Shown here one piece after another: positions 1,286-55,528 of a stretch of DNA of 64,000 nt; within the stretch, counting starts at the first letter, position 1, and every line of letters begins with the position of its first letter. The notes under the pieces are model-generated. The model was not told the origin of the DNA and searched no databases. It saw only the letters and a list, made by a program, of their open reading frames with translations. Source of the DNA: Azolla caroliniana (lineage: Eukaryota > Plantae > Polypodiophyta); assembly GCA_043228905.1 (NCBI GenBank), contig JBHGNT010000065.1:62001-126000 (forward strand), in the 5' to 3' direction. Both the position numbers and the translations under genes were made by a program.

Positions 1286-2271
1286 GTATCCGCTCTTGAA
1301 AATCACCGGCCCGCCCCTTCCACCCATCATAGTGCCCCCTCGTCCGTTACTTTACCTCAGTGCTCTCCTGCCCGCGTAACATTATGAAAGGGTTGAGAAC
1401 AGCAACGGCGACGGTATAGCAAGAGAAAGCTAGAGAGAAAGGGCTATGGGAATGTGAAGGACTCCCTTCGTTGAAAAAGAAAGTGTCGATTGTCTATTCT
1501 TTAGGCACTCGCGGGAGACTAATCTCTCCTAGAGAACACGTGTGGGAAGTATTCGTTTCTAATAATCCCAAAGTCTTTAAGGTTTTGACCATTTTGTGTA
1601 ACCATTAGGATGCTCCGAAAACACTGGAGTACAGGAAGGAAACACTGGTGTCAAAGCATTCTTTGGGAACCACATCCTGTTCTTCCTAGATGGATGATTT
1701 GCCCCGTTTGATGCCGTCGTGTGAAAGTTGTTTTCATGATTTAGGAATTCAACTGATTTTAGGTAATCCATCTTTATGTGGCACGACATGAAAGGTGCTA
1801 TGAAAAACACGTAACCGACCGAATTACGTGAAATGGATAAATCAATCTGGTTAGGGCATTCTTTAGAACTTACTTCAGGAAGAATCATCCAGGGCTGCGG
1901 TTGCGGTTTCTTCTTTCTTGTATTCATAACTTTTTTCTATTGCTTTTTCGGCGAAAAGGCAAGCAAGTTTTACCTGACTTAACTGAAAAGCCTAGAAGTG
2001 TTTGTAATGCACAGCATCCTTAGCTCAGTCGGATAGAGCAACAACCTTCTAAGTTGAAGGTCACAGGTTCAAGTCCTGTAGGATGCGGAAAGTGCACATT
2101 AGATTATATACCTACGGAATGCTTTGCCCTTGTTCAGGGCGGGCTAGCGGGTTCTTCCTTTCAACCGAACCTGCATCATGCTTCGGTCACTTTTCGCTAT
2201 ATTGGTATATGGGATTACTTGCCCCTTTTCACTTCTTTTTAAACAGCCATGATTATAAAGAACCAATCTCA
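1286..2271. repeat. Direct repeat B, copy 1 (contains trnR-UCU); partner 39071-40056
   Basis: Identical sequence at offset 37785 (ORF 1577..1927 = 39362..39712). Confidence 0.95.
2014..2087 (+). tRNA. trnR: tRNA-Arg(UCU)
   Basis: GCATCCTTAGCTCAGTCGGATAGAGCAACAACCTTCTAAGTTGAAGGTCACAGGTTCAAGTCCTGTAGGATGCG cloverleaf. Confidence 0.95.
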
Positions 2272-2421
2272 GATTTTTATGAAACCCTGCCTGAACTGAA
2301 CTTTATCATGGCTTGCAGTCCACTTGAATAATTTGCTACTGTTCTATCAGTTTTCAAACGGATACATAGATTTTGAACATCGAAGAAAGAAAGCATATTA
2401 TGCGCCGCTCTACCGTATGAA

Positions 2422-3099
2422 ATGGAAAAAGGAAAGAAAGAGTATTATTCCAAAAAGGAAAAGAAAGTCATTTTTTAAAGATTACCGAATACAAGCGCAC
2501 ATTCGGGCTATTAGGGACCCCCAACTCCATATTATTAAAGATATTTATACGGATTTAGACGCGGAAGGGCTATTATTGATTTGGAAAAAACACTTTTATT
2601 CTTGAAGATTGCTTGTAATGCGATTGGATCTATCATTCGTAAGGAGGGCCATTTATTGTTGGTGAATATTGATCTTTTGTACGATGACACAATGAAAAAA
2701 ATGGCGAGAAGGACCAATTAAAGTCATATCAATTCCAAATGGATTGGTGGTTTCTTAATCAATTGGGAACATATGAAACATGAAGAACGCTTTAAGTATT
2801 CATCCACGTGGCGGCATTCTAGTCTACGTTTTTTAAAGATGTAAAGATATTTCGAAGGACTGATAACATGCTAAATTTCAGATAGTTTAGTTATACCGAA
2901 TGCACGTAAAGATTTCATAGCTATATTTGAAGCTAATTGATCATGAATATTTATTGCATTCCTGGTGGATTCTACTCTCCTAGAGGGATTACATAGGTTA
3001 GTTATTTATCTCATTCTGGTAAATAATGATTCCGTGTGGTTCACAAATCCATTTTGCTAATTGGTCACGAAAATAGTCATTCATTCGAAAAAGGCTTGA
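2422..3099 (+). CDS. rps2: Mitochondrial ribosomal protein S2 (needs U-to-C editing; alternative upstream start at 2308 from a nad9-derived segment; 3' end uncertain)
   Basis: Translation YLYGFRRGRAIIDLEKTL...RTN*SHINSKWIGGFLINW...FEAN..IFIAFLVDS matches plant mt Rps2; in-frame stops fall at Gln/Arg-type positions. Confidence 0.88.
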
Positions 3100-4113
3100 G
3101 AACCCAGCAGAAAAGCCAGTAAAATAAGGAAAATTCAAAAAAGAAAAAAGAATACCCACTAGAAAGGATGCTAGTTGCTGTCTCTCACCTCTTCAGAGCG
3201 GCACCAGAAATCAAGCAAGAACCAGTATTATTCGTCACCTTACTATGCGTCCCTTTGCCATTCTTTGCGATGGCGAAAGCGGCTCCAGATGAGAAAAAGA
3301 GCCCAGCACAGCCCTGGAATTTGGGCTTGATACACTGGGAGGTTATAAACAGTCACACCCGCAGAGAGCGGCTGGGCGGTAAGTTGGAGGGAGTTTTCTG
3401 CAACAACTTTAACTTTCGCAGCTAACAGAAATCTCCTCTGTCCTAGAAGATGACGTTAGATCAAACCTATGCTCTCAGGCGCTTCTAACGTCCTACAAAA
3501 CCGAAATCAAGTCAACAACGCCGCAAGCAATTAGTGACCTCAGTTCAGCTAGCAGGAAATATGATACTGGGATAGGGTAGCAGGCACTATCGCGAGGCGC
3601 TCCCCTATCCCAATGGGACTACAGGAAAGTCCGCAATGCAATATTGTGGAGAATGAATTAACCCCATTAAGGCAACCACGAAAGCATACCGCTTACGGTT
3701 TGATGAGTCTGATCTCGAGCGAGAATGAATTATCATTTTGTTCTGAGAATTCATCTGTTGGCTCAGCTCCTGGGGATGTAGAGGGCTAAAAGTAACAACA
3801 ACTTGGTTATGGAAAATTGTCTTCAATTAAGTCATTTTTTATCCTATACGTCGGGGCGGGGTCCGCCCCCTCCCACGCCAATTGAACCAGTTAAAGGGAA
3901 GACAAGATCGACCCTCAACCATGCTGCTTTTACGGCATGCTCTTCCTTTCTTCCTGTGCTTGTTCTCTTCAGTCTAAGCTACGTAACTCCTCCCTTCAGT
4001 CCAAACCTTCGTCCCAATTCGTAAGCCTTCGCTTGACCGCAGTCCCTCGGTAGAAATGGGTTTGGTTTTCCCATAGCCATGATCTGTAGCCATCCTTTGT
4101 CCTATTTGTCAGT

Positions 4114-4184
4114 TGCGGATAACGGGAGTCGAACCCATATCCTCTGCTTGGAAGGCAGATAATCTACCGTTAATCTATATCCGC
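4114..4184 (-). tRNA. trnG: tRNA-Gly(UCC)
   Basis: Reverse complement GCGGATATAGATTAACGGTAGATTATCTGCCTTCCAAGCAGAGGATATGGGTTCGACTCCCGTTATCCGCA. Confidence 0.95.
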
Positions 4185-4595
4185 CTAAGTTTCGTTTCCG
4201 AAAGGAGGGGTATTATGAAGAAAGAGATCATTCCTATAATACAAATCGGCCGAAGCGCGGGGCCTTCTATGCGCGCGCAAAGACTTTGCCCCGCTCAAGC
4301 ACCTAGTAGAATGCGAGTGATGGATCATTTGTGTTCAATTCGTTTCATATACGATAATTCATGGAGCTTGCTTGCTGCGTGGGCCATCCCCAGCAGTAAT
4401 GGTTGAGGGCCGGCGTAAGCTATCGATTAGCGCCTAAGCCGCTTGGTTGGCACCCGATCTCTCATCACTCAATCTCGGGAAGGGAAAAGGGCCTAGAAAG
4501 AAAGTCTTATGTCCTTGCAGCAAGCAAGTCGCAGCAATGCAATGAAGGCCTTCGCTTTGTCGTCGTCTTTCGATCTATACGTTTTTCGAACTCCA

Positions 4596-4628
<33 letters not shown>

Positions 4629-4979
4629 GCTTTAGGCTTTAGCGAGGTTCATGAAATCTCGAAGAAAGCAGCAAGCAGCTGGGGTCTTTGAATAGTTAAC
4701 GTCTCACAGGTCATGAGGCGGCTCGAAAGTCAAAGAATGTATATGATACTAACCGTACATTTTCCCTTCCCGCGCTGGTAGCTCAACTGTTAACCGCTTC
4801 ATCCGCGATTGGTCTACGGTTTCAATCCCTTCATGCGCTTCATGAAGAAGCGCTTCCTCCTCGCGCATAGCGCTTCATCCGGCCGGGCCGGGCCGGGCCG
4901 GGCCGGGCCGGCATTTACCCAACTTGGAATTAACTTCATCAAGTCAGTACAGTTAACGAAAGGACGCTGGCGCTTCCCT

Positions 4980-5201
4980 TTGAGATTCCCTCCAGCCACA
5001 GGTTCCCCTACGACTACCATGTTACGACTTCACCCCAGTCACTGACCCAACCGTGATATGCGCCAAGAAGACCACCAATACCAAAATGGGCCACACTCAA
5101 CTAGGCATGGAACACTTTAGTAATGGGTGATCTCTGGTCGATGCTTCGGGCGAAACCAATTCCCAGGGTGTGACGGGCGGTGTGTACGGGGCCCGAGTAC
5201 A

Positions 5202-5251
<50 letters not shown>

Positions 5252-5687
5252 TTCTCGAGTTGCAGAGAACAATCCGAACTGAGGCAATCTTTCTGGATTC
5301 GCTCCGCCTTACGGCCCTGCTTCCTATTGTAATTGCCATTGTAGCACGTGTGTAGCCCAGCCCATAAGGGCCATGCGGACTTGACGTCATCCTCACCTTC
5401 CTCCATAGTAGAACTACGGGCAGTCTCTTGTGAGTGCAACATCGGCACAGAGGGAGTGTCATCAATCCTGGCTAACCGCTGACTGAACACAGATTCATGG
5501 GCAGGTACCGATGAAGCGGCTCACTTACCACCGGCTCGCTCGTCGGAACCTCAAGTTCGTCGGAAGCCAGCCCATGTTCTATGTTCCTGCTTGCCGAGGG
5601 TGAATGATGACATTGATCCTCTGGGAGCAGCATATCTTAGCAACACAAAACGAGGGTTTCGCTCGTTATAGGAGTTAACCAAAAACG

Positions 5688-5726
<39 letters not shown>

Positions 5727-5833
5727 ATGAATTTTCGTTTCATCCCGTTAAGGACAAGCACACCGGTTCATATGTCAAGTGTTCATACGTCAAGTGTTCA
5801 TATGTCAAGGGCTGGTAAGGTTTTGCGCGTTGT

Positions 5834-5866
<33 letters not shown>

Positions 5867-5986
5867 AGGCCCCCGTCAATTCCTTTGAGTTTCAGTCTTG
5901 CGACCGTACTCCCCAGGCGGAGTGTTTAACGCGTTAGCTGGGCCCCCGATCCGCGGACCAAGGACGAACACTCATCGTTTACGGCA

Positions 5987-6022
<36 letters not shown>

Positions 6023-6262
6023 AGCTTTCGCACCTCAGCGTCAGTAGAGACCCAGAAAGCTGCCTTCGCTACTTCGGCGTTCCTTCGTATATCTCCGGAT
6101 TTTATCCCTACACACGAAATTCCACTCCCCTCTGTCCCACTCGAGTAAATTGGTTTTGAAAGCATTCCGCCAGTTGAGCTGGCGCCTTTGACTTTCAACC
6201 TGATTCACTGCCTACGTGCCCTTTACGCCCAGTCATTCCGAATAACACTTGCCCCCCCCGTC

Positions 6263-6298
<36 letters not shown>

Positions 6299-6454
6299 CT
6301 TCTTCGAGTCTTGTCATAATCGCGTACTCGACGAAAGAGCTTTACAAGCGGCATTGCCCTTCCTCGCGTTAGCGACGTTTTTCACTCACTCACGCGATAT
6401 TGCTGGATCGGGCTTTCGCCCATTGTCCGATATTCCCCACTGCTGCCTCCCTAC

Positions 6455-6492
<38 letters not shown>

Positions 6493-6600
6493 GTCCGAAA
6501 AGATCAGCTAAGCATCTGCGGCTTGGTCAGCCTTTACCCAACCAACTACCTAATACTACGCAGGCTCATCAAACAGCGCTTTTTAGCTTTATCGAAAAGC

Positions 6601-6636
<36 letters not shown>

Positions 6637-6810
6637 AGCTGCTTTCGTTTCTTTGGGATTCGGCCCAAACTGTTTGGCAGATTCCCACGCGTTACGCACC
6701 CGTTCGCCACTTTGTCTTCAACTGTTCTATAGACGAAAACAACGTTCGACTTGCATGTGTTAAGCATATCGCTAGCGTTCATTCTGAGCCAGGATCAAAC
6801 TCGGTTTTTT
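4980..6810 (-). rRNA. rrn18: Mitochondrial small-subunit (18S) rRNA, ends approximate
   Basis: Universal SSU motifs GAGTTTGATCCTGGCTCAG, GTGCCAGCAGCCGCGGTAA, AAACTCAAAGGAATTGACGG, GTACACACCGCCCGTC; plant-mt-type expansion at about 5420-5630; no anti-Shine-Dalgarno tail. Confidence 0.96.
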
Positions 6811-7489
6811 GGTCAATTTCTGCCATACGAGGCAGGTTGATGAATTCATGTGCAATATTTGAATTTTGGTGTGACTCTTGGTTGGAGAAGGCCACACCAC
6901 AGTTGGTCTCTTCTCCATAAGCCGGACCGCCAACGTCAAGGCGAGATCACATTGGTCCAGTCCCCGCATAGCCAGTGGAAGGGTGAGGTGCATCCACTCA
7001 GATAGCATGGGGAGGTCGAATGACTGCGGCCACGTCAATCCGCTTCTTTTCTTTTCTTGTTGGGCCGCGCCGCAATTGTCTAGCTTCTGCGTTTAGTTTT
7101 TTTTTTCGCTCTCGAACGGTTACGATGAACCGGTGCATATGGCCGGAGAACCAACCTTTGGTTCGAGATGGATTCGGCCTTCCCTTACGTCATGTTCATG
7201 GCCTTGCATTCCAATGATCACTGCGCTTCACTTGGCTCCAGAGAGCAAGAAGGCCTAGCTAGAACAACAATCTCAGTGACAAAATTGACCTCGGCTAGAA
7301 GGTTACGTAAGTGAATTTCAGTCGGGCCAGCAGCAGTGTTCACATGTTCATAGATGCTCCAATGAAAAAGCATAAACATCACGAAGCCCGTCTAAAGTTT
7401 AGTTTTTTTCTTCGCTGAAAAGCAGCAGCTCTCGATACACTGGTGCATATGGCCGGAGAACCAACCTTTGGTTCGAGATGGATTCGGCC

Positions 7490-8075
7490 GAAGGGAGTGA
7501 GAACCGGCGTGTTGGCATTAACAATCATGCTCTCATCTTTCGAATCAGTCGTTACGGGGTCAATGAGCTAGCTCGTAGCTACGAGAGAGATTCCCTAAGA
7601 ACAAGGTGGTTCTGGAATACGAGATAAAGCAACGAGGACAGTGGGAACAAGACCTTTTGGTGGTGGGACCCTGGACTGTTTAAGTGTTGGTCCCGGGGCA
7701 CCTATCCTGGCGCATTCTTGCTTGCTTGCTTGCTTGCTGAACCCGGGTTGGCGTTAGCTAACCGCCTACCAAACTTGACCTGCTTTCATCTTGGGGCCTG
7801 ACCCGCTTTATTCCTCGTCGTTGAGGGCGTGCTTGCTTGCTTGCTTGCTTGCTTGCTGGGGCACTCGACCGCAATAAAGGGAGAGAAGCTTTCACGACTT
7901 CCCACGGTGTGGCCATTACTCTCAAAGGGTAAGCTGGTTTCACCGTTATGAGCCAGTTATTGAAAAAGCGTTCGCACGCTTGTGGGGCGAAAGGCCAGAG
8001 GAGGACTCCTTTTCCCTCTTCTTGTGGTCCTTCGGACTTCAACAAAGGAACGGCGGAGTCGTAGCTCTTTGATTC
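7490..8075 (-). other. 5' portion of a group I intron in rrn26, apparently broken after P3' (rrnLi825g1-like position)
   Basis: Follows exon ...GGGGU; IGS UGGCCUUUCGCCCC (7984-7997); P3 AACUGGC / GCCGGUU; P AUAACGGUGAAAC; Q ACACCGUGGGAA; R CCCGUAACGACUGA (about 7545-7560); no canonical S element and no 3' exon. Confidence 0.8.
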
Positions 8076-9085
8076 ACCCCTAGCCACGAGTCATCCCCGT
8101 ATTTTGCCACATACGTGAGTTCGGTCCTCCAAGGCCTCTGTGGAGAGCTCGATTCAACCTGCTCGTGGCTAGATCAATCGGTTTCGGGTCAAATAGAAAC
8201 AACGCCGAAGATTCAACCTCGTTGCGCCTACACCTAATGGCTTAAGCCGCTGTTCCCATTCACTCGCTGACCCATTATGCAAAAGGTACGCCGTTAGGGT
8301 GGAAAGTGCTAAAGCGAGAGCCGACAACGCGAAGCTTCGCTCAAGGGTTCGCGTATGCGAACATTAGTGGCTTTGCCTCCGAAAGCTACAGCGCTTTCTC
8401 AGCTTCGCGTATGCGTTCCATCGAACATTAGTGGCTTTGCCGCATTTTCTCAGCTTCGCTCTTCCGACTGATAGTTTGCATCGGATTTCAGGTTTTCTAT
8501 TGCACTCCCGGCATACGGCGGGGTCTTTTCACTTTTCCCTCACGGTACTTGTGGTACGCTATCGGTCATTGAGGAATACTTAGGCGCGGGGGTGGTCCCC
8601 CTTAGTCACGTAAAGCGATCATTATTCAAACACGGTATCCGCGTTTTGTAATGGTAATCAAACTTGCCAGGAAAGATCTACGGGGCTATCACCTTCTTTG
8701 GCCAGATCTTCCAACCTTTTCAGAATTCCTTGAGGAAGGGTTCCCACCCTTCCCTCTACTGCAAGTTCTCCCCCGCACGGGGCCAGGGAAAGCGGCCCTT
8801 CTGGGCTGGGGCCCCTTCCCTTTTCTTTGCCTAATCCGCTTTCGCTCGCCGCTACTAACGGAGTCTCAGTTGATTTCCTTTCCTTTAGCTACAATGATGT
8901 TTCAGTTCGCTAAGTTTCTCAAGTCCGAGGCAGAGCCGCAGCACACGGCATGCCCGGCAAGCTTGGATACGGTTTCCCGATTGGAAACCCATGGATCACA
9001 GACGGTATCTCCCCATGGCCTTTCGCCTTTGGAAGCGTCCTTCCCTCTCAATGCCCAGGCATCCATCCAATGCATTCTTTTCGAT
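8076..9085 (-). rRNA. rrn26: Mitochondrial large-subunit (26S) rRNA, 5' exon only
   Basis: 5' end AAGAATGCATTGGATGGATGCCTGGGCATTGAG; AGTACCGTGAGGGAAAAG; GGAGGACCGAAC...GATGACTCGTGGCTAGGGGT, after which homology stops. Confidence 0.93.
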
Positions 9086-9385
9086 GCAGTAGGAGTTGAA
9101 CCTACCGAACACCGTACAAAATCTTAATGAGTGTTCTGCGATCGCCACTCAACCTGTGACTGCTTAAAACCGAGACAAAAAGAAGCCCGCATAGATTATT
9201 ATACAATAATCTTCGGACGTTTGTAAAATGCGGAAGAAGCGCGGAAAGAATTGGTCGAGTACTTGGACAGAGGATTCATTGTTTCGACGAAAACGTCTAC
9301 CAAATGACCCTGCATCCTCTGTTTTTTCCTTTACGCTCTTGAGTTCTCTTTCCGTGCTGTGCGATACGAAGTTTGTACAATCCGC

Positions 9386-9708: not shown

Positions 9709-9826
9709 GTCCGGGCTGTCGAACCACGTCTCCCGAAAATTATCAGTACATATGGCAGAAAACGCTTTTCACATATCGAGGTCGGAATGGGATCGGGTGT
9801 TTCACGTCTTACAAAGATGCCCGGAC
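9709..9826 (-). rRNA. rrn5: Mitochondrial 5S rRNA
   Basis: Reverse complement CCGGGCA...AAGACGTGAAACACCCGATCCCATTCCGACCTCGATATGTG...CGGGAGACGTGG...GCCCGG, plant mt 5S signature. Confidence 0.93.
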
Positions 9827-9925: not shown

Positions 9926-10653
9926 GGAAAGTGCAAATACAGCTGGTACTTAGCCTTCGATCGCTACCAACCTCACAAGGATGTCATCAATTCGCAGGTG
10001 GTTATTAAGTAAAAAGTGTAATATAAATGGCTACCAAACCAAAGTTCTTCTTTTGAACTTTCAAGAAGGCCTGAATATTCATGGATTATTATACGATAAT
10101 CTTTAATGCGGCTCAGATTGCGGAAAGAATTGAATGCTGGAATTTCGAAATTCCGTTGGTAAAATTCAGAAGGATCATGCAAGAAGGCAATATCATCTTC
10201 TGGCCATAATCTGCGAATCCAGCAAAGCAAAGCAAAGCAGCACTTTTCTTTTCACTTTAAACCGAGCCGGCGGCAATCTTGATGAATCACTGGCAAGAAG
10301 ATGCTTTGCACTTTTCTTTCCACTTTAAAGCAGCAATCTTTGAACTCGGAAATGGCACTTTTCCCTGCAAGCCTGAAACGCACGCCTTCCCCAAAAGAAA
10401 AGCGGAACCACCTAACGAGTATTTTAAACAGCAAGCATGATGAACCGGCATGTTCATCAAACCAAACAGGTTCTTCATGCATGCATGAAGGCCTTCATGA
10501 TGATGAAAACCGCTTCATTGGAATGTCACCGTCTCATTGACAACACGAATGATAACGAATTGACAATATGAATAGTCACGTTAGTTTCCCATTCTTAAGC
10601 ATGGATTATTATACAATAATCTTCATTTGCTTTTTTACTGTTGACAACATGTA

Positions 10654-10727
10654 GTGCGGGGGCAGGGTTTGAACCCGCAGTCTTCAGGTCATGAGCCTGA
10701 CGAGTTGGCCATTTACTCCACCCCGCA
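10654..10727 (-). tRNA. trnfM: Initiator tRNA-fMet(CAU), copy 1
   Basis: Reverse complement GCGGGGTGGAGTAAATGGCCAACTCGTCAGGCTCATGACCTGAAGACTGCGGGTTCAAACCCTGCCCCCGC, plant mt trnfM type. Confidence 0.92.
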
Positions 10728-11099
10728 AGCAAGCAAGCAATTGATCTCTCTCTAGCGAATCGGAATTTATTTTAGAAAAAAAGAAGCCAGAAAATAGATT
10801 GCCATAGCCATGGGTTCAAACCTTTCCCCGAAGCTGCCGGCCGAAATCAACCGTTGCCAGTCGTTGTGTCCAACGAAGCTACGCGTAATGACTGTCCCTA
10901 CCAAAAGACAAACAAACAAAGCATTTCTATAGGAGGTAACTGGGCCAATTCCCGCAAACCACCTATAGGTTAGGTGGCGGTGATCTATCGGCTTGTTCAA
11001 TTCCCGCCGTTATCCGCTCACCCGCCTAACGCTCCTACAAACAAAAGGGAGGGTCTCCTTAGTAATTACGTGAGGGGGCCTCCTTCCCCATCTCTTGAA

Positions 11100-12286
<1,187 letters not shown>

Positions 12287-12658
12287 ATAGAGTCAAGCTT
12301 CTGCCGAGGAGAAGTGATCGTAGTTGTGCTCTCCGAACCGTGCGGAATAGTCGCCCATTACACGGCTCTCTAACTTGACTTTATCTGGGTCTTGTTTAAC
12401 CCCAGAGGCCGAAAGGAGGGTGGAAACTTCCTCACAAGTTCCCTCCTCCTTTCCTCCTTGGGGACCCACTTTGTGATTTCCTGAAGTCCACTCTCTCCTG
12501 GAGTTTGCAGAGAGGAAAATGGCTTTTCAGTTAAGTCAGGTAAAACTTGCTTGCCTTTTCGCCGAAAAAGCAATAGAAAAAAGTTATGAATACAAGAAAG
12601 AAGAAACCGCAACCGCAGCCCTGGATGATTCTTCCTGAAGTAAGTTCTAAAGAATGCC
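12287..12658 (-). other. 3' part of group II intron atp1i361 (domains V/VI), copy 1; upstream limit unknown
   Basis: Domain V GAGCCGTGTAATGGGCGACTATTCCGCACGGTTC and terminal ...ACTCTAT before the exon. Confidence 0.82.
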
Positions 12659-13825
12659 CTAACCAGATTGATTTATCCATTTCACGTAATTCGGTCGGTT
12701 ACGTGTTTTTCATAGCACCTTTCATGTCGTGCCACATAAAGATGGATTACCTAAAATCAGTTGAATTCCTAAATCATGAAAACAACTTTCACACGACGGC
12801 ATCAAACGGGGCAAATCATCCATCTAGGAAGAACAGGATGTGGTTCCCAAAGAATGCTTTGACACCAGTGTTTCCTTCCTGTACTCCAGTGTTTTCGGAG
12901 CATCCTAATGGTTACACAAAATGGTCAAAACCTTAAAGACTTTGGGATTATTAGAAACGAATACTTCCCACACGTGTTCTCTAGGAGAGATTAGTCTCCC
13001 GCGAGTGCCTAAAGAATAGACAATCGACACTTTCTTTTTCAACGAAGGGAGTCCTTCACATTCCCATAGCCCTTTCTCTCTAGCTTTCTCTTGCTATACC
13101 GTCGCCGTTGCTGTTCTCAACCCTTTCATAATGTTACGCGGGCAGGAGAGCACTGAGGTAAAGTAACGGACGAGGGGGCACTATGATGGGTGGAAGGGGC
13201 GGGCCGGTGATTTTCAAGAGCGGATACCTATCCCTAAACAAGGCACAAACCTTATCGACATACAGGTTCCTACTTGCTTGAAGGCCTATTAGCACAACTT
13301 TGTTGAAGATCGCCCAAAGTAGTACCTTCCTATAAATGTCAACGTCCAGTGTTCGCTCAACAATGTTATCCCTAGAATCCTCGAAAATTCATTGTCAGAA
13401 GCCCGGAAGACCCCTTGTAAGAACAGGAACCTGCCTTAGGCAAGCTACCACTTCACTTGGCCGGCAAGCTACCTGAATCTGCCGGTTCTTCGTAATGAGG
13501 AGAGGCCGGATCTCGATTCGTGCACTTTCCTATTGCCAGGTGGCTTCCTGGCCCTACCACTTTTGTTTTCAAAGGTGCTAGTTTTTTGTTTGTTTTGTTT
13601 TTTTGGCTGGCGCTTCAGTCATGAAATGAGTAACGAATAATAATAATATTCCGGCTGCGCGCTGTACTTTTCACTAACGCTTTTCGATGAAGCGGTTCAT
13701 CGTGGCATGACTCGCCGCTTTCATTAACAGAATGGCTTTCTGCTGCTGCATAGGAGCGCGAAAGCAGCACCCATGTTGGCTGGGCTGGGCTGGGCTGGGC
13801 TGGGCTGGCGAAGTCTCAACACCCG

Positions 13826-13860
<35 letters not shown>

Positions 13861-14512
13861 CCTCTATGAGCTGCAAGTACCTACCCGCATAATTTCCTTT
13901 AAGAGACCCTATTACATGACTAGGTCATTCCTTAACAGTGTGTGGAAGGTTAGAGAACCATCCACGAGGACCAGCCCGAAAAGAAAAGCTGCCTCCTGAA
14001 CAAGTCACCTATAGCGTTGACGTGGACAAGCCCGGGATGCGCCCTCAGAGGCTGACCTGCGGCCGGCGGAAGAAGCGGAAAACCGCTCTTCTTTTCTTTG
14101 GCACTCTGGATCCACCTGCTAAACAAGCGGTGCTCCAGAAACCAGCAAATCGCCTACCAAAGATAGACAGGGAAAGCGTGTTCTGAAAGCAGCAGGCAGC
14201 ACCGATAGCTCAATCGGATAGAGTACCTGGCTTCGAACCAGGTGGTTAGAGGTTCAAGTCCCCTTCGGTGCACACAAACCTTCCTTGAATGTTTCATAGA
14301 ACGGTGTTGTTCTCCGGGAATTCTCGGTCGGCATGTTGGAGTGTCGGAGCCAAACCTTAATCTCATTTAAGTGGTATGGCGCTGCTAGATGACATTTGGT
14401 TCATTATCTTCTTCATACATAGAGGTAGGCAATTTCAGGCGCTACAACCCTACCTTAACCGGGCCACTTCACGTTTGGTTATTATTAACGTGAGAAATCG
14501 ATAGGACCAAGT
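12521..14512. repeat. Inverted repeat A, copy 2
   Basis: Reverse complement of 1-1992. Confidence 0.95.
14199..14272 (+). tRNA. trnR: tRNA-Arg(UCG), copy 2
   Basis: Repeat copy of 241-314. Confidence 0.93.
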
Positions 14513-23451: not shown

Positions 23452-23709
23452 ACGAAGCCGTATATCCTTCGTCTCCTAGCTAAAATCTTTGGAATCATCA
23501 TATTACTTTTACCAGGAGTAGTCTTTCCAGTGTCAGTCGAACGTAAAGTCATGGCTTCCATGTAACGTTGAAAGGGTCTTAATGTGGTGGGATCATCTGG
23601 GTTGTTATAACTCTTAGCGGATGGTTTGAAATCAATTTTAAAAGAACCTATTCCACCTCCAAGTGCTAATTTCTTTCTTTCTGTAATGGTTCTGGTAATT
23701 ACATCTACG
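23452..23709 (+). CDS. nad1: NADH dehydrogenase subunit 1, exon 1 (ACG start, edited)
   Basis: ERKVMASM*R*KG.NVVG..GLL*.LADGLK.ILKEPI; exactly 258 nt followed by GTGCG. Confidence 0.93.
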
Positions 23710-24459
23710 GTGCGCCGTGCGAGGCTCGTTTTCTTTCCGGAAGAATACCCTTCTACAACCAACATAGATGTTTGACTTGGAAGTATATACGGCGGGCCAA
23801 TACAACATCTTGGGCTAATAATCCATCGAGTTCGCGAGCAGTTAGTCGGAAAGGGGCGAAGCCGGGCAAAGCGGTTTCCCCGGTCCCCGAAGGAAGGACG
23901 GCTTAGCCCTCCTCGGTGGTGTCTCTCAGCTGATGCGAGAAAGGTTAGATTGACTCACTTGGTACGTACCTACTGCCTGAGTAAGGGCTACGTATCCCGA
24001 ACAGAATACGTCAGTATGTGTGTGGCGGAGTAATCCAGGGCCCAGTTTGGGCGAAAGCCTTGACTTCCACATGAAGCGGTCAAGGTTGCCGGACAGCCAG
24101 CCACAAGTAATTCCAGCATAGGAACTGACTTAAACAATCGAGCAGGTGCGCAAAGACCTGTAACCATTGGGTGCTCTGACGGGGCGAAGCAGGGAAGTGC
24201 GTAGCGCTTACTCCGTCCTCGAAAGGCAAAGACACGAAAAGAGAGCAACCACGGGAAGTAACCGCTTCGCATTGTCTAGTAAACGATGCGCGGTCTCAGA
24301 GGTCGCATAGTAGCGAGGGAGGAATGCCAGAAACCTGGCCGAGCCGCGAAGGCAACTAGTCAGAACAAACCTTAGTTCAACGCGGCCAGTACGTATGCGG
24401 CCGGCCGGCGTTGAGAATAAGGAACAATTCTTCGAAACGGAAGGGACGGCAATACTCTC

Positions 24460-24496
<37 letters not shown>

Positions 24497-24574
24497 TTAA
24501 GGTGTTCCGAGTGAGAGCTGTATGACAAAAGATTGCCACGTACGGTTTGGAGGGCAGCATTGACTGACCCCTAT
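23710..24574 (+). other. Group II intron nad1i258 (cis)
   Basis: 5' GTGCG; domain V GAGCTGTATGACAAAAGATTGCCACGTACGGTTT; 3' CCTAT. Confidence 0.9.
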
Positions 24575-24710
24575 TTAAGTTTGGTTGCTCGGGCTGTTAC
24601 ACTTTCTGATTATGGTATGGTATTGTCGGATCCAAATGTAGGTACATTCTATCTATTTGCTATATCTTCTCCAGGGGTTTATGGGATTATTACAGTGGGT
24701 CGGTCTAGTA
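24575..24710 (+). CDS. nad1: nad1 exon 2
   Basis: [35 protein letters not shown]; 136 nt, cumulative 394. Confidence 0.93.
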
Positions 24711-26226
24711 GGGCGGCCGTTCAGTCACCTGTGGTACTAAAGCAGCCAGCCCGGCCCGCCCATGTGGTCAAATTGTTTGTAGTGTGGAATGATCTGCTCT
24801 ATACAGGGTGTAGGGCTCTTCGACAGAACTAGTAATAGGCTTGACTCGCGATTTGAAGGGTAGGGGGGGTTCTTGTGTAGGAGGCTAAAAGGGGATAGGG
24901 ATACGTTCAAAGAAGTTCAGGAAGAAAGGAAGAGCATGCCGTAAAAGCATGGTTGAAGGTCGATCCTGTCTTCCCAGGGAGTACCTAACAACACCATGTG
25001 GAAGAACCAACCTTGTGGATCAGGATGAGGTGCCGTCCTAGCGAATTGAAGTCTCCTTGGGTAGCCAACGACCTACAGTTATCCTTGTACCTCTGTGCCG
25101 AGCGAACGACTGTACGCTGTCTTGTTTTCTGCCAGCTGGGATTGCTTGCCGGCCAGATCGGATTGGAGCAACCATTGCATGAAGGCACATTACCCATCCT
25201 CTTGGGGACAAGAGACTGAACGACATCCCGATTTACTGCATTCCAGGACATCTGGGATGAGAGCCGTAGGTGATACCGGCGAAACCCAGCCAGATTTTGT
25301 TCTGGCAGGTAGTCAGAGGACTCATAGTACCCGCCCCGAAAGGGGCCCCTCACGCACGCACGGGGAAGACGCTAGTTTTCAGGGAAGAGGAAAGTCTTTA
25401 TTTCTTTTTCCACGTTGTTTTCTTCTAGCAGCAGGAAAGGAGTCTGGATGTCTGCCTAGCTTCGGCAGATTCTACTCAACGCAATCTGCAAACTCGAATC
25501 CCCGAAACCTGACTCAATGCGGAATAGAATTGATCGTCGTTTGGTGGATCTCCAGCAAGCAGTTTTAACTAAAAGAACAGGACATACCACAAAATTCAGA
25601 GAGAGAACACGAAGCGATCGATCTGCTTACCGAGGGCTAAGGCTAGACCGCAGGACCTGGATTTATGACGTCCGGCCCGCTCCTCTCGAGTCCTGCCTGC
25701 TGGGAACGAACCACGAGGACGACCGCCAAGAACGGGCGTACTCGAGGGGGGCCAGAACCAAGCCCAAACGGGACGGAAGGGTACGGAGCGAGGTATTATA
25801 AAGCATTGCTTTATGGCGGCCGAAGAAAAGAAAAGAAAAGAAAAGAAGCGGTTTTCATCATCATGCATGAAGGCGCGCGCGCGCGCCGGTTCATCATGAA
25901 GGCGCTGAGTCAGAATTTTCCACTCCGCTAAACTAAAGAGGACGACAGAGAAGCAGGAGACGACGAACCCCTGCAACTACGTCGGACCTCTCGGAGTGAA
26001 AAAGAAAGCCAGATGGTGGTAGACTATCACGTACGGCTTTGCCCTCCCCGCCAACCACGTGTCAATGTGCCTCTACGGAAGGAACATCGACGGGCGGGTT
26101 TCCCGGGCGATCTAAAGCAAGTTGTTGGGGTAGAGAGCCGTATGCGCGGCGACGTGCTCGTATGGTTCGGAGAGGACTCAGCGTACACTGATCCTGTTGA
26201 TTGGTGGAAAAGCAGCTTCACTCCTT
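24711..26226 (+). other. Group II intron nad1i394 (cis)
   Basis: 5' GGGCGGCCGTTC; domain V GAGCCGTATGCGCGGCGACGTGCTCGTATGGTTC near 26135. Confidence 0.88.
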
Positions 26227-26560
26227 ATTCCAAATATGCTTTTTCAGGAGTATCATGATTTGCCGTCTAAATGGTTTTGTACGAAGTATCTATTGGTCCT
26301 ATTATCATTACTGCACTAATTTGTGTAGGTTTTTGTAATTTTAGTGAGATTGTCATAGCGTAAGAGCAGATATGGTTTCGCATTCTCTTGTTCTCCGTAT
26401 TGATTCTGTTTTCTATCTTTCGCTCAGTAGAAACTAATCGAGCTCCGTCTGATCTACTAGAAGTAGAAGTTGAATCAGTCGTGGGCTATAATGCGGAATA
26501 TCTTTTAATGGGATTTGCTCCCTCTCTTTCGGGAGAATATGCTAATACGATCTTAATGAG
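26227..26560 (+). CDS. nad1: nad1 exon 3 (no i477 or i669 introns)
   Basis: SKYAF.G...YEVSIG...[19 protein letters not shown]...GEYANTILM; 334 nt, cumulative 728. Confidence 0.93.
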
Positions 26561-28018
26561 GTGCGGAGCCTTGCATCCGACATTCGTTGGGCTTCCGCTC
26601 CCTGCAGGAGCCAGCGTCCCCTCAAGGGCTTTGTGCAGTAAACTCCTCCGGGCGACGATCTGAAGACTAGTAGGTCCCGCGAAGCTTTCGAAGAGGGGTA
26701 GCCTGGTGTGTAAGCACAGCAATGAACCGCGAACCCGTCGGACGACCTATCTAAGATTAGGAGGATATCTCAGGTGGTTATCCCGCAACTCTTCCCCAGA
26801 CCTATACTATCGAATGCTCATATGGGAAAGTGCGCTCTTAGGTCTGGAACCAGGGAGGGTTGCTCCGAGAAATCCCTTCTCGTTTCCTCCAGGGGGTGCG
26901 GACACACTTGCACGGATTACAGGTGACGGCTACAAAGATGGCGGGGAAGGAAACAGTACCCGACATCCAGGGATGAATGTAAACTCATTGGACAGGGGTA
27001 ATCATTCTGGTCCTGGGAGAGAAGACTCACCAACAACAGTGGTAGACACTAGTCTGAAAGGCTAGCAAAACAGAATCACCGAGACAACGGCAGCCCCATG
27101 TACTCCTGTTGCGGACGAGAGACTGCTTGCTTGCTTGCTTGCTACTGGCGTCCCATGAGCAAATTGAGTCTGAACCAGGCGACTTAACCCCCAGCGAAGA
27201 GGGATTTCTGCTGAAAACTTGTTCGTTACGTTACGTTAAAGGGGATCTTTTTGGAATGGTCGGAGAAAGACTCGCTGCGCCTCTTGTCAGGCGCCTTGCT
27301 CGAGCCCGCGGGAGAAGTGATGGTACTGTTTATTTCCAAAAATTCGTTCTCGGAGTCAGAAGGTAAAGCACCGTATCTCACAGCTCCCTACTAACGCTCC
27401 GCTATCAATTCCAAGTTAGAGGAGGGAGGAGTACCCTGGTCTGGTAGCCAACCCACTTTAATGCTATCGCATTCTCTCTGCTGGGTTAAAACCTAAAGAA
27501 AGTGTGCTTATCAGCAGCAAGCACAAACCCGGTTGGTTGTTTTCAGCTGCCCTTTCTGTAGGTTGAGTGGCTTCAATCTCTCCCCCCGGCAGGCAGGCAG
27601 GCAGGCAGGCAGGAACTTTCTCGCTCGGCCTTTGACCACCTACCTCTCATTGTTCTCCTGGGGACTCACTCACTTTAGAGATTTTTCTCCGTCTATGCGG
27701 GCTCTAAGCCGATGAACCGGTTCATCATGAAGGCCTTCATGATGAAAAAGGGGTTGGCGGGTTTGATGAACCGCCTTGTAGGCCAGCCTGAACTGTAAGT
27801 CGATCCCACTCTGCTGCTGCTGTGCCAACCACCACCGAGACATCCATGCGAGAGAGAGATCGGATTCGAAGACCTAAACGTTGCATTGGTTGGAGAAGAG
27901 GAAACTCAATATTCCCGGGACGGAGCCGTATGACGCGAGAGTGTCACGTACGGTTCTTTGAGAAGGGTGTGGATACACCTATTGGGCTAAGGGCCACAGA
28001 GCCGCGCCCTCACTCTCC
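26561..28018 (+). other. Group II intron nad1i728 (cis, no intact matR)
   Basis: 5' GTGCGGAGCC; domain V GAGCCGTATGACGCGAGAGTGTCACGTACGGTTC near 27923; only 1458 nt long. Confidence 0.9.
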
Positions 28019-28280
28019 TAGTCTATGTACACCGCCTTTCCCGGGAGGTTGGCCATCCATTTTAGATCTTCCTAGTTTCCAGGGAATTCCGGGCTCAATC
28101 TGGTTTGGCACAAAGGTTATTTTCTTTCCGTTCGTATATATATGGGTTTGCGCAGCATTTCTATGACATTGTTATGATTAACCAATGAGACTTGGACGGA
28201 AAGTCTTCCCGCCTTTATCATTAGCTCGGGTAGTTTCTGTATTCGGCGTTCCAGTAGCCTTTGACTGGCTACCTCAATGA
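28019..28280 (+). CDS. nad1: nad1 exon 4
   Basis: SLCT..FPGGWP.ILDLP...IPGSIWF..KV...YIWV.AAF.*..YD*.M.LGRKVF.PLSLA...FDWLP, then CAA TGA. Confidence 0.93.
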
Positions 28281-28739
28281 ATTGAGCATACTGTGATGTT
28301 GAACGTCATAATTAATGGGGTTCTGGTCGGAAGAAAACGGCGTCCAGACCCCTCTCACGCACGCCCGCCGATGGAAATTTCGTAAACAGAATGCCGCCTT
28401 GCGATCGTCCGATCGATGCTTCTTCGAGGGTGAGAGCACCGACCGGGAAAATAAAAGGAGGAAAGAACCGATACCCCAGCTACTACGGCGCGCGCCTCCC
28501 AGATCACAACAATATCTTCTTCTTTTGCTAGGCTTACGGCAGACGCCCTCGGCATAATCGCAATGGACGGCCCTAGGTACGGTAGTGGCGAGTCCAGGTT
28601 GCTTGACCTAAACGATTTACCGCCAACCGAAAGGTAATCGTTCGGTTATGTCAAGGGGTGAGTGCTGTGTCAAGCGGGCGGATGCATGATGAACGCTTTT
28701 CGGGGCCGCACGCAGAAGGAAAAACACAGATTGCGAAAT

Positions 28740-29120
28740 ACGCCTACCATAAATTAATTGCTTCGTCATTGTAGAAGGGCAAAACGTCACAAAACATGTA
28801 CTTGAGCTTCGAATTAATGTCTCTAAAAGTTTGGGGTACGCCCGCGTGTTTCGACAAGAACACTAAAAAAACCTAATCTGGCTTTATGCAAGATAGCCAA
28901 GGCACGTTCAAGCAATTGAAGGAATATCATTGCTCACATCTTTGGCGAGGGTTATAATTCATAGGAGCATCCTGCGGTTACGGCTAGAGGAGGTAGAGTG
29001 AAAGATTCGTTAGGTGTGAATTATCATCGTATTCGAGGAGTTAAAGATTCGTAGGGAATCCCGGATTGAAGATGAGGCAGACTAAAACATGGTACAGAGA
29101 AACCTAAGAATTCGATACGA
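28740..29120 (+). CDS. rps12: Ribosomal protein S12 (ACG start, CGA-to-UGA stop, 9 in-frame stops needing U-to-C editing)
   Basis: PTIN*LLRH...RVSTRT.KKPN.AL.KIAK.R.SN...GEG.N.*EH....RGGRVKD..GV.YH.IRGVKD; 126 codons. Confidence 0.92.
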
Positions 29121-29809
29121 ATAAAAAGGTCAAATCAGGGAATGGTTGCTTTTCTCGCTCATCGCCTTCAGACCGGTTTAATTTTTCGGGAAGACTTTCA
29201 GAATGACCGGCGGAAACTTTTGGAACGGAAAGCCATCCGCTTCGATCCCATTGCAAATATTTCTGCGCCCATCTAGCAGGGCTTTTGTCACCCAGACCCA
29301 AGGGAGGCCGTGAAGGAAGCACATACAGCTGCTCGGAGAGATTAAGCTACATCTGGGGAGTGGATAATAAACAAAAAAGATTAATCAAGAAATTAGTCCA
29401 CTTTTGTATGATTGATGGTAAAAGAACAAAATCTCGTGTTATTGTTTCCTAAACTTCTTCTCGTCTTTCCTGAACTGAACCCGATGTTCATGTTATCACA
29501 CTCCTGGCTAACGCCATAGAGAATGTCAAGCCTACTCGCGAAATCAAGAAAGTGAGAATCGCAGGGACTACTCGTAATGTACTCAAGATTATTGCCAAAG
29601 AACGTTAAGAAACCTTAGCTTTTCGTCGGATCATGGAAGCAGCTGTCAAATGACGTACTATGAGCAGAAATAGCCAGAGCTTGGATTAATGTTCATCTGC
29701 TGAGATACCGGATGCTTATCAAAGAAAGGGAAATGTTCGTAAAAGAAGGGATGATCTTCATAAACCGGCAGAGGCCAATAGAAGTTTCGCGCATTATAGG
29801 TGGCGGTGA
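29117..29809 (+). CDS. rps7: Ribosomal protein S7 (ACG start inferred, long N-terminal form)
   Basis: [26 protein letters not shown]...[18 protein letters not shown]...[20 protein letters not shown]; 230 codons. Confidence 0.9.
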
Positions 29810-31214
29810 ACCATTGAAAACATGTAATGAGCTGGGGTCAAGAGCTGTTAGACACTTTAGCAGCACACACCCTACATCGCAGAATCGAGTAATTGGTAAT
29901 CCATCGTTCGAATGCTTAATGATTCTAATATTGACAATGAGACCTGCCAAAAAAAAAGAAAGCGAGAATTCGATTCTGGTGTGAATTTGGTGCTACGTGA
30001 ATTTAATGAAGAAAGTTCGCACTCCCTTCCCTACTGATAATTGGGGGCATCTGAGCCCGCCCCTCGGACATGGGGGCACAAAAGCAGCACAAAAAGCACT
30101 ATACCCTCCCTGTCTAACTTGTTAAAAAACAACGGAGTAAGTCTTTGCCGGCATTGTTAAGTCATTGGAAAAAGACACCTAACAACAATGAAGATTCGTT
30201 TCCAGAGAGTTTATTCACCGTTGCTCCTGGAGAATACTCTGCAAACAACAAACCGTGCGTGCCCTTTCAAGGTTAATCTCAACGATGAAGCGGCTAGCTC
30301 GACTCCATCGATCCTGTGTACAATGTCTCAGATTACAGGCCTTCGCTGTGGCGGAACTTGATGACCTGGACTGCGAAGAGCCCTATAGTGACGGCGATAG
30401 CGAAGCAGAGGTTGAAGAATTTCTTTTGCCTGCTTCTAACTTTATTATCAAGAATAATGTTCTGGCGGTCAGCGTTAGATAAATCTCATAAGAAATATAT
30501 TCAAATAGGAATTTGTACGTTCAAACCGTGCGTGTGCCAATTGCTCGAAGAAGCAAAGGTTAAGCTTGAAGCCGAAGAAAAGAGAGGTAAGGAAAGATTA
30601 ATGATAAGCGATGGATTGGGCCAAACAAATTCGGCGGATTTCTTGAGAAGGAAGGAATACTTGCAAAAAATGATCGAACAATTTGTTGACGAGAGATCAA
30701 TCTATAATAACTCGCTGGACCTTTTTGATTGATAAGCTGACCAACAAAAGGCAAACCAACATGCAGGATAGGTTTATTGCGCACTTCAAGAAAGATAAAG
30801 AACTAATAGACATTTTAACGTCCTTCGATGTATATACGATTGAAATACTTACGATATTTTAGAATCTTTATTGTTAGATTGTTTATTAATAGGGATTGCC
30901 TCTTTTCCAGAGTCTAAATTATTATTATTAAAATCTTTACCGTCAGATTGTTTATCAACAGAGATTGACCCAGACTCAGATTTTCTTGAGTCTGAATTAA
31001 TCGAAAAACAAAATAGCCACGGCCTTTACCATTAAACTTACATTATAACACTTTTTTTTCAATTTCAATATCTCATTTTCTAATGCTATTGTATGACAGC
31101 AGAAAAATTGCGGTATAAATGAAAATATTATTAATACAAAGAAAACCTTGTTTTCTTCTTTGATCAAACAAACTCATATCTTTAAATAATAAACGAATTC
31201 TAGTTTGAATAGAA

Positions 31215-31410
31215 TCTAAAGCTACTTTTGCTTTCATTCACCAAAAGCAGCTGCTTTGGTTGCGTTGGTTGTTAACCATTTTAAGAGAGTGTATAAGGAC
31301 CTACCACTCTATACGGCGGTGTACGATTGCTTCATATCAAACTACAAAGTATCTTCACTATTACCAGATCTATATAAATCAACCCTGTTCGGGTCTTTAG
31401 GTTGTCCGAT
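31215..31410 (+). pseudogene. Fragment of a linear-plasmid-type single-subunit RNA polymerase
   Basis: ATFA-FIHQK..ALVV...PLYTAVYDCFI resembles the NFIHQKDA...IYTVHDxF motif C region. Confidence 0.6.
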
Positions 31411-31788
31411 GGCAACCAAAGCGTCTTTCTATTGTTCCCCGAACCATTCGAACTCTTTTACCAGATTCTTGGCAGTCCCTTTCCCAAAGAAAGTTGGGAA
31501 GTGCAGTCTCTGCAGGCAGGCAGTTAGCCCCTCGGGTCGTTCAGTCTCGAAGGTATGGTTCGGGCTTCGTTCGTTTCTTGTGACCAGATTCATTGGTTCG
31601 AGGCTACGTACGTTGGATCGGGTTCGGGCCCTAAAATATGTGATTGGGTAATTACGATGGCTCGTATACACGTTCGAGGATCACTCTCCAGGCGACGGAG
31701 GACTGCTTAGTGATTGAAGGGAGAGAAGAAACCCATTTGATTTCTCACTAGAGGCCTAATGATTGCATAACTCTGAGGTTCCAACTGC

Positions 31789-31874
31789 TACGGATAGAGG
31801 GATTTGAACCCCCACGACTGAGTAAGGTCACCAGAACCTAAACCTGGCATGTCTACCAATTCCATCATATCCGC
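31789..31874 (-). tRNA. trnL: tRNA-Leu(UAG)
   Basis: Reverse complement GCGGATATGATGGAATTGGTAGACATGCCAGGTTTAGGTTCTGG...GGGGGTTCAAATCCCTCTATCCGTA. Confidence 0.92.
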
Positions 31875-32001
31875 ACATCGATTCTTATTTCGAAACCACC
31901 CTTTTTCACTGCTAACTGGATAGAGCTAAGAACGCCAATGGCTCGGATGGCGTAGCAATTAGAGGAAACTGAAACACCACCCCGTATTTTTCGATTCTCC
32001 C

Positions 32002-32033
<32 letters not shown>

Positions 32034-32179
32034 ACGCGCGACTTGCTCAATGGAGCCCGCTTACGACGATCCCTTTTAACCTCTCAGGCTCTTATAGAAG
32101 GCTTATAGAATGCCTATATGCTTTCCAAATCAAGTTAGGGTGATGGGAAAGTGGGAATGCTAACTTATGACCATACTCA

Positions 32180-32266
32180 CGGATGGAGAGGGATTCGAAC
32201 CCCCGGTATCTCTCCGAATACTTCGGTTTTCAAGACCGACTCTTTAAACCGCTCAGACATCCATCC
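32180..32266 (-). tRNA. trnS: tRNA-Ser(UGA)
   Basis: Reverse complement GGATGGATGTCTGAGCGGTTTAAAGAGTCGGTCTTGAAAACCGAAG...GGGGGTTCGAATCCCTCTCCATCCG. Confidence 0.95.
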
Positions 32267-32484
32267 CTTTCCCGACAAGATCACGAGCCATCAATAATCA
32301 ACGGGAAAGCGTGCCAAGCTTTCAGGTCTTTGTAAATCGCACGCAACGCCTTCAGAAAACAAATAGGTTGTACCGCAGGGCCTCCTCTTTGGCCCCTCCG
32401 ACCAGAAAGGTTAAGCGTGGTAATTGATCATTCTATTTTAGATTGATAGGAACTAAGGCGTCCTAATAACCAAGTTTACAACCA

Positions 32485-32557
32485 TGGGCAATAACGGACT
32501 CGAACCGCTGACTCCCTCGGTGTAAACGAGGCGCTCTACCAACTGAGCTAATTACCC
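32485..32557 (-). tRNA. trnV: tRNA-Val(UAC)
   Basis: Reverse complement GGGTAATTAGCTCAGTTGGTAGAGCGCCTCGTTTACACCGAGGGAGTCAGCGGTTCGAGTCCGTTATTGCCCA. Confidence 0.95.
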
Positions 32558-33587: not shown

Positions 33588-33661
33588 GTGCGGGGGCAGG
33601 GTTTGAACCCGCAGTCTTCAGGTCATGAGCCTGACGAGTTGGCCATTTACTCCACCCCGCA
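33588..33661 (-). tRNA. trnfM: tRNA-fMet(CAU), copy 2
   Basis: Identical to 10654-10727. Confidence 0.92.

Positions 33662-52309: not shown

Positions 52310-53496
<1,187 letters not shown>

Positions 53497-55496: not shown

Positions 55497-55528
<32 letters not shown>

Follow-up and report, generated by a model that had tools for sequence, protein, structure and literature searches.

Split and joined copies of the mitochondrial rrnL intron rrnLi825g1 coexist around a probably recombining repeat in a fern-type genome

Introduction

How is the large-subunit rRNA of a mitochondrion produced when its gene stops inside an intron? The question is raised by a 64-kb stretch of DNA (contig C65 of assembly G000, positions 62001-126000; hereafter the window), in which the 5' exon of rrnL, the 26S rRNA gene, is followed by part of a group I intron and then by rrnS. 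A sequence-only reading of the window had proposed that the ribozyme core is assembled from two RNAs and that the rRNA is trans-spliced. In the fern Haplopteris, the intron rrnLi825g1 is reported to be trans-spliced, and its break has been modelled in P9.0/P9.1. Shifts of organellar introns from cis to trans are usually seen after fixation and are treated as one-way.

Gene content of the window

The window contains rrnS, part of rrnL, 21 tRNA genes and the ends of group II introns. A nad4-type gene found near the repeat described below has in-frame stops of the kind that U-to-C editing removes; its product resembles NADH dehydrogenase subunit M (E 5.6e-35, a match below the whole-protein cut-off and obtained with a query of 87 residues only). 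Stops of this type, together with the gene content, indicate that the DNA is mitochondrial and of fern type. The mitochondrial contigs are unrolled, as evidenced by 136,593 distinct 31-mers in the 600,710 bases examined, and an inverted repeat of 10.2 kb is internal to the window. Large inverted repeats, exact or nearly so, occur at 23530-33722 and 53808-64000, at 1-1992 and 12521-14512, and at 10009-12658 and 51938-54582. Contig C65 is an unrolled path across a repeat-rich mitogenome, and other split-gene calls made on it need the same check.

The rRNA genes form a cluster, trnM-rrn5-rrnL5'-rrnS, on the minus strand. It is headed by trnM(CAU) (10654-10727). Upstream of rrnL exon 1 lies rrn5 (9710-9824, a position transferred from its offset in locus L005), which scores 27.3 bits (E 0.022) in Rfam, under the gathering score, on the L005 stretch that matches the window. 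The rrnS (18S) gene, at 4980-6810, scores 1221.5 bits.

The 5' half of the intron

Rfam LSU matches are found on the minus strand at 9074-8477 and 8468-8031, and no further LSU match was obtained with Rfam in the 64-kb window. Combined with RNA depth, these matches delimit rrnL exon 1 to 8076-9074 (minus strand); six RNA molecules end at 9064. The exon terminates in ...GGCUAGGGGU at 8076, exactly where the sequence-only reading had seen 26S homology stop, and the RNA junction described below places the boundary at the same nucleotide. Near 8310-8465, exon 1 features an expansion segment of about 150 nt with a short tandem duplication inside. This expansion is kept in mature RNA, and a 5-nt deletion falls within it in RNA runs X22 and X23.

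The 5' half of the intron spans 7494-8075 (minus strand) and runs from P1 to the 5' strand of P7, P3' and the first strand of P8. Its 5' splice site is supported by RNA reads. The internal guide sequence, UGGCCUUUCGCCCC, lies at 7997-7984 (intron nucleotides 79-92) and includes the 3' strand of P1 (7995-7987) and one strand of P10 (7997-7989). The dual pairing that had been claimed for a guide about 80 nt into the intron is borne out: P1 forms 8 of 9 pairs, with a U-G pair at the splice site, and in P10 all 9 positions pair with the first bases of exon 2. When the first 150 intron nucleotides were dinucleotide-shuffled 20,000 times, such a complement arose in 18 cases. Also on the minus strand are the 5' strand of P3 (7958-7952), the P element with the 5' strand of P4 (7946-7941), the Q element with the 3' strand of P4 (7909-7904), the R element with the 5' strand of P7 (7558-7546), hairpins resembling P7.1 and P7.2, P3' (7508-7502) and the 5' strand of P8 (7501-7494). 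The names P, Q, R and S for these elements follow the group I consensus. Helix checks agree with the earlier assignment of the P3, P, Q and R elements, since P3 (7958-7952 with 7508-7502) forms 7 of 7 pairs, P4 6 of 7 and P6 3 of 3.

The remainder of the intron is missing from the window, as had been stated: pattern searches returned no S element at up to two mismatches and no exon 2 start at up to three, in line with the Rfam result. Downstream of P8, the 5' part of loop L8 (403 nt, 7091-7493, minus strand) contains two direct copies of a 48-bp repeat (7489-7442 and 7179-7132), an element that occurs in these two contexts only within the mitochondrial DNA examined.

The 3' half and the complete gene copies

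Exon 2 was located through an Rfam hit, L005, where it forms one block of 2,034 nt (1501-3534) and adjoins the terminal G of the intron (L005 3535; C65 9327). A full-length LSU gene was found by Rfam on contig C142. Its match to the window begins at 9300 and runs to about 6850; the shared stretch extends to 6863, and the final 228 bp of that stretch are a multi-copy repeat, hereafter called R. Past R, the C142 gene proceeds through P8', S, P9 and the terminal G to the 2,034-nt exon 2, which gives the intron a total length of 1,302 nt. The missing part of the gene thus exists elsewhere in the predicted order, with GAAAGGCC following the terminal G. Contig C65 itself also carries a copy of the 3' half (C65:9276-11361), in the opposite orientation to the 5' half and 60 kb from it. 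Pairing between the two halves comprises 6 of 6 pairs in P7 and 8 of 8 in P8, with one bulge each. The core is broken around P8, as had been proposed from the window, the halves being separated in L8.

The terminal G, a P9 hairpin with a GNRA loop (GAAA here, GAGA in five other ferns described below) and P10 are all present. The Rfam group I covariance model gave no match to the intron at E values up to 10, loops of about 340 and 670 nt interrupting the core, so the class assignment rests on helices, splice sites and orthology. The intron is a group I intron with its core helices in canonical order. Two published Haplopteris primers, rrnL_e12f1c and rrnL_ie2r1, correspond to the exon junction and to the final bases of the intron, identifying it as rrnLi825g1. 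Judged from these matches, it is orthologous to the intron reported as trans-spliced in Haplopteris, the precedent invoked for the window. Three further rrnL introns of Haplopteris are missing here, where exon 2 is uninterrupted.

Complete, cis-arranged rrnL genes are found on contigs C142, C151 and C27, that is, in 3 of 16 copies of the 5' half. The halves lie apart in the other 13 of the 16 5' copies and in 12 of 15 3' copies.

Repeat R and its flanking sequences

Repeat R (6863-7090, minus strand) behaves as a recombination hub and is likely a promoter or leader; its exit in the window is rrnS. R is entered from two sequences, A (the 5' half of the intron) and B (trnM with roughly 1 kb of non-coding sequence), and is left through four: the intron 3' half, rrnS, nad4 and a trnV-trnS-trnL cluster, the last reached via the first ~60 bp of R only. 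In the window, entry B with these ~60 bp leads to trnV-trnS-trnL at 53638-54896 (plus strand), where B ends in an intact RTA-GCARAAG. A second copy of entry B with partial R, in the inverted repeat, leads to the same cluster at 32631-33722 (minus strand).

The assembly holds at least 16 copies of the 5' half, all identical (40 of 114 candidates scored), 15 of the 3' half and 17 of the rrnS start, and all of them run through R. Entries A and B are distributed as 3 and 12 over the 3' half, 8 and 9 over rrnS, at least 3 and at least 11 over nad4, and at least 2 and at least 3 over the tRNA cluster; the nad4 and tRNA figures are lower bounds, based on the 40 that were scored of 97 candidates. All eight combinations of entry and exit are present, and independence of entry and exit is not rejected over the 51 passages through R (p=0.30), contig copies not being equivalent to counts of molecules. 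On C65, two copies of R are inverted and 60 kb apart, so that one crossover would convert 5' half-rrnS plus B-3' half into a complete rrnL plus B-rrnS. Two alleles of R, distinguished at ~7068-7072, each occur with both entries and all four exits. Alleles are mixed in two passages, which suggests that the consensus was built over mixed reads.

Several other identities for R were considered. Derivation from the plastid rrn16 promoter was rejected, the longest match to 2.3 kb around the plastid rrn16 start being at most 14 nt. Rfam gave no match beyond chance at E values up to 10, and ARAGORN found no tRNA or tmRNA in R. Pairing of R with the 5' half or with the rrnS trailer was also discarded, shuffled sequences doing as well in 21 of 30 and 13 of 30 cases, respectively, and none of 72 pairs in R was changed on both sides. 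R is not a homolog of the Haplopteris repeat R203, which sits 3' of the rrnL 3' part.

Nuclear and short-read DNA

Mitochondrial stretches inserted in nuclear DNA, on chromosome-size contigs, provide a record of the arrangements around R. Nine of the 22 stretches examined span R plus both flanks, and five entry/exit combinations are preserved. The joined form, A-3' half, is found on C12; it matches in 1072 of 1209 columns (89%) and is the most diverged copy examined. Split forms are represented by B-3' half on C4 and C14 (97-100%), A-nad4 on C20, a 24-nt A tail joined to rrnS on C7, and B-rrnS on C9, C11 (twice) and C19. Two further loci, L063 (C19:8271500-8276000) and L067 (C7:695000-698000), are nuclear insertions of several rearranged pieces of mitochondrial rDNA.

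In both X1 and X5, contigs built from DNA short reads show branching at either end of R. In X1, which is possibly the source of the assembly, A (49-51), exon 1 (49) and rrnS (45) are at single-copy depth, the exits to the 3' half and to nad4 have a combined depth of 95, and the stretch shared with B reaches 173. These depths imply one A for about every four entries, and random assortment would then join the halves in about one quarter of cases. Depth in X5 is uneven, at 242-284 in exon 2, 102-136 (about half) in intron entry A and 222 in the 5' part of exon 1.

RNA data

Transcripts were taken from two raw-read runs of one study (X22 and X23, each sampled to about 12-13%) and from contigs of a second, rRNA-depleted study (X15). 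All three are labelled as another organism and show small indels relative to the window, including two 5-nt exon deletions; the label and the deletions indicate a close relative or another accession. The junction predicted for spliced RNA, GGGGU|GAAAGGCC, is present: 109 reads in X22, 158 in X23 and one contig in X15 skip 1,302 nt. Exon sequences are identical across arrangements, and junction reads fit trans-spliced molecules as well as cis-spliced ones.

In the two raw-read runs, exon depth is mostly 70-235 (100-220 in exon 1) and intron depth mostly below 5, with a few reads in the distal loop. Along the 5' half of the intron, X15 depth falls from 496 to 228 and then to 49, the latter drop occurring past the first 48-bp element. 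No contig bridging A to R is found among the X15 contigs listed. Depth is 73 across B-R and rises about 40-fold inside R, reaching ~2,400-3,000 in its 3' part; it is 316 at the unspliced 3' splice site and 330 in the rrnS leader. Sense RNA runs from B into R in 8 of 11 X22 reads at the site and in an X15 contig, and transcripts also start upstream of the RTA motif, within B. No clustered RNA starts at the RTA motif were seen among those listed, contigs being unable to show RNA ends. The pattern of depth fits two separate intron RNAs and also fast decay of an excised loop.

R in other ferns

Scanning metagenome contigs with the 3' end of the intron returned 17 loci. Eight are identical to the 3' half of this genome and start in or just after R, three are short and diverged, one is unrelated, and five belong to other ferns, as indicated by an 8-nt exon followed by the start of a group II intron, an arrangement also found in Haplopteris and Pteridium. 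The 3' ends of group II introns are seen in three of these five. In all five, R directly precedes P8', S and P9, with an ungapped identity of 89.5-92.4%, and the distance from the motif to the terminal G is 336-373 nt, compared with 317 nt here. Homology begins at a single motif, RTA-GCARAAGCTAG, and the DNA upstream of it is largely unrelated among these loci.

At least two of the five loci, as sequenced, are devoid of a 5' half upstream of R. In L144, the 3' end of rrnS lies upstream on the same strand; in L159, a stretch resembling rrn5 and a tRNA occur within 2.6 kb upstream, where no intron core is found. The other three extend only 163-480 nt upstream, which is too short to exclude a joined gene. 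L159 contains two extra copies of R, one ahead of rrn5 and one with an exit that resembles nad4 by eye. In its 3015-6021 region, the group II intron that follows the 8-nt exon meets another R copy within ~850 nt, and no exon 3 is found in 3 kb; this region is either a broken copy or a second split intron. No 5' halves of other ferns were found in viral contigs, and a Prevotella match to the 5' half in genome contigs was dismissed as chance.

All 7 of the 7 other-fern copies, as well as entry B, have RTA ahead of the motif; in entry A it is replaced. For the phage-type promoters of plant mitochondria, work on angiosperms shows that recognition depends on the TA of the CRTA/YRTA core (PMC5040748). 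Compared with CRTA/YRTA, the first base of the motif is not a constant pyrimidine, and the RTA core and a purine-rich start region are present. To judge by this conservation, R is a module that heads the 3' half as well as other transcription units, and it is likely the conserved promoter or leader of the 3' half.

Discussion

The window represents one of several recombinational states. We consider it reasonably probable that recombination at R toggles rrnL between a mostly split and a partly joined form and that the rRNA is made by trans- plus cis-splicing. Trans-splicing of the rRNA, as claimed from the window, is likely: the halves lie apart, the junction is found in RNA and the ortholog is reported to be trans-spliced. 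It is not obligate, as a continuous gene is present in the three joined copies and in one old nuclear insertion of the joined form. These same copies had been named in advance as what would speak against a split gene; most copies are nevertheless split, and the window is not a simple partial duplicate.

The following sequence of events would account for these data. R, as a promoter or leader, would have been duplicated ahead of rrnS, nad4, the tRNA cluster and the intron 3' half. Placed behind entry B, it would drive a separate RNA made up of P8', S, P9, the terminal G and exon 2. This RNA may then form P7, P8 and P10 with the precursor that carries exon 1, and a guanosine-initiated, two-step reaction would join the exons. 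Joined molecules, entered through A, would probably be read through as a single precursor and spliced in cis, since the motif behind entry A is devoid of the RTA core.

Rather unlikely, in our estimate, is the alternative that the joined copies alone work, in which case R would be a promoter repeat lodged in L8, the window a non-productive recombinant and its truncated RNA degraded. Under these terms rrnL would be present at about one fifth of the dose of rrnS, joined copies accounting for 3 of 16 5' halves and 3 of 15 3' halves. Complete genes do exist on three contigs, and the most diverged nuclear copy is cis (1072 of 1209 columns); yet the 3' half keeps its R leader in five other fern-type loci, two of them without a 5' half upstream, and RNA depth restarts within R. 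Reports on other ferns point in both directions. A preprint (bioRxiv 10.1101/2022.12.23.521604) describes a single, efficiently spliced rrnL intron in Azolla filiculoides, as judged by RNA-seq, and four in Pteridium, the first of which is, like that of Azolla, among the closest known counterparts, and states that no trans-splicing introns are known in ferns, all of which is compatible with splicing in cis. The same is true of the Haplopteris intronic repeat R596, which is reported to recombine weakly, whereas the Haplopteris ortholog itself is reported to be trans-spliced. The one Azolla rrnL intron that it reports agrees with our data and makes a water fern the likely source of the DNA, and the passages of the preprint considered here mention neither a split form nor an intronic repeat; the A. 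filiculoides mitogenome is described as small and repeat-rich (~157 kb), its short reads having been joined by hand.

We regard as improbable that splicing is always in trans, with joined DNA also giving two RNAs, one ending at the 48-bp hairpin and the other starting or processed in R. The decrease in X15 depth beyond the first 48-bp element (228 to 49), the lack of an A-R bridge among the contigs listed and the ~40-fold jump in R would be expected on this basis, as would the conserved placement of R at the head of the 3' half in other ferns. However, RNA ends cannot be read from contig depth, the distal loop does contain a few raw reads, and the A-R junction is devoid of the RTA core present in all other copies, which argues for read-through. 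That the split forms, the window included, are chimeras assembled over a short repeat in a genome with one joined rrnL is hardly credible: although the contigs are unrolled (nine copies of the 5' half lie on C27) and alleles are mixed in two passages, 13 of 16 and 12 of 15 copies would have to be wrong, and the nuclear junctions B-3' half (C4, C14), A-nad4 (C20) and A tail-rrnS (C7) cannot all coexist with one fixed joined gene when A is single-copy.

Reversible toggling at R, the reading that we prefer, can be compared with known systems. The Haplopteris intron has the same insertion site and the same 3' end, and the feature table of that genome shows its 5' part clustered with the same neighbours, rrnS, rrn5 and trnM; among the table entries considered, no repeat is given upstream of the 3' part. 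The two differ in the break, which is in L8 here and in P9.0/P9.1 in the Haplopteris model, and, as far as the Haplopteris account goes, only here do joined copies coexist with split ones via R. [quoted passage not shown] Among those covered there, Prasinoderma Pr.rnl.1 and the introns of Helicosporidium, Trichoplax and Gigaspora cox1 have a bipartite core broken in the P8 loop, as here, and in Prasinoderma the host gene is likewise rnl; they are described as fixed splits, with breaks where cis relatives carry an ORF (PMC3873408). Here, in contrast, the repeat in L8 is likely a promoter, and the split and joined DNA states are found side by side. As a repeat of ~200 bp with all flank combinations present, R resembles Haplopteris R203, for which the same is reported. 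R differs from ordinary plant mitochondrial repeats in lying inside the intron of an essential gene, where recombination alters the mode of splicing and not gene order alone.

The intron rrnLi825g1 and its trans-splicing in one fern are already known. Our literature search, which included passages of PMC12548569 and PMC11965612 and lay outside most subscription journals, found no case in which cis and split forms of rrnLi825g1 coexist. Within the same literature, we found no earlier description of split and joined states coexisting via a leader repeat, of a break in L8 of this intron, or of an R-headed 3' half across ferns.

Evidence on the direction of change is divided. Secondary rejoining is favoured by the damaged motif at A-R and by the Haplopteris-like cluster in the window; a retained intermediate is favoured by the old cis nuclear copy and by the gene reported in Pteridium. 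Tentatively, and with considerable doubt, it may be suggested that L8 was split early in core leptosporangiate ferns when the 3' half captured a promoter repeat, that trans-splicing is common among them, that the 5' half was placed, in the present lineage, ahead of a further copy of R, and that recombination at R rebuilds the gene here in about one fifth of molecules. Were this so, trans-splicing of mitochondrial LSU rRNA would be the rule in many ferns rather than an oddity of Haplopteris, whose break would be predicted in L8 and not in P9. Reversion from trans to cis would then operate as a reversible DNA switch, contrary to the one-way view. For angiosperm introns, a 2025 paper reports no known trans-to-cis reversion (PMC12625411), and the sole case offered in an older paper, that of Zostera, is doubtful (PMC5435185).

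A single genome thus contains both DNA states of one essential rRNA intron, connected by a short repeat that is likely also the source of the promoter required by a 3' half. If confirmed, this arrangement would show concretely how a trans intron can acquire a second transcription unit, and would allow cis- and trans-splicing of the same ribozyme to be compared within one plant. Fern mitogenome assemblies that choose one path across R may call the intron cis or trans by accident.

Additional features of the window

Three further features are recorded here. At ~6368-6371 in rrnS, the 4-nt loop of a hairpin is present in either orientation, as TAAC or GTTA, in 9 and 8, respectively, of the 17 assembled copies, and 52 of ~135 X23 reads carry the alternative orientation. 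This looks like a heteroplasmic micro-inversion within 18S rRNA. At 6429, all 154 X23 reads show a change from G to A on the plus strand (C to U on the rRNA strand), which is also seen in X15 and is not found in DNA runs X1 and X5; either rRNA editing or an accession difference is involved.

The 17-nt motif GATTATYGTATAATAAT has eight copies in the window and none in 100 shuffles. Six are on the minus strand (9195-9211, 10085-10101, 10605-10621, 33019-33035, 33539-33555 and 35370-35386) and two on the plus strand (53975-53991 and 54495-54511). The sites include one ~120 nt ahead of rrnL exon 1, one upstream of rrn5 and two in entry B, several being copies inside larger repeats. The motif contains a YGTA core and may constitute a second type of promoter.
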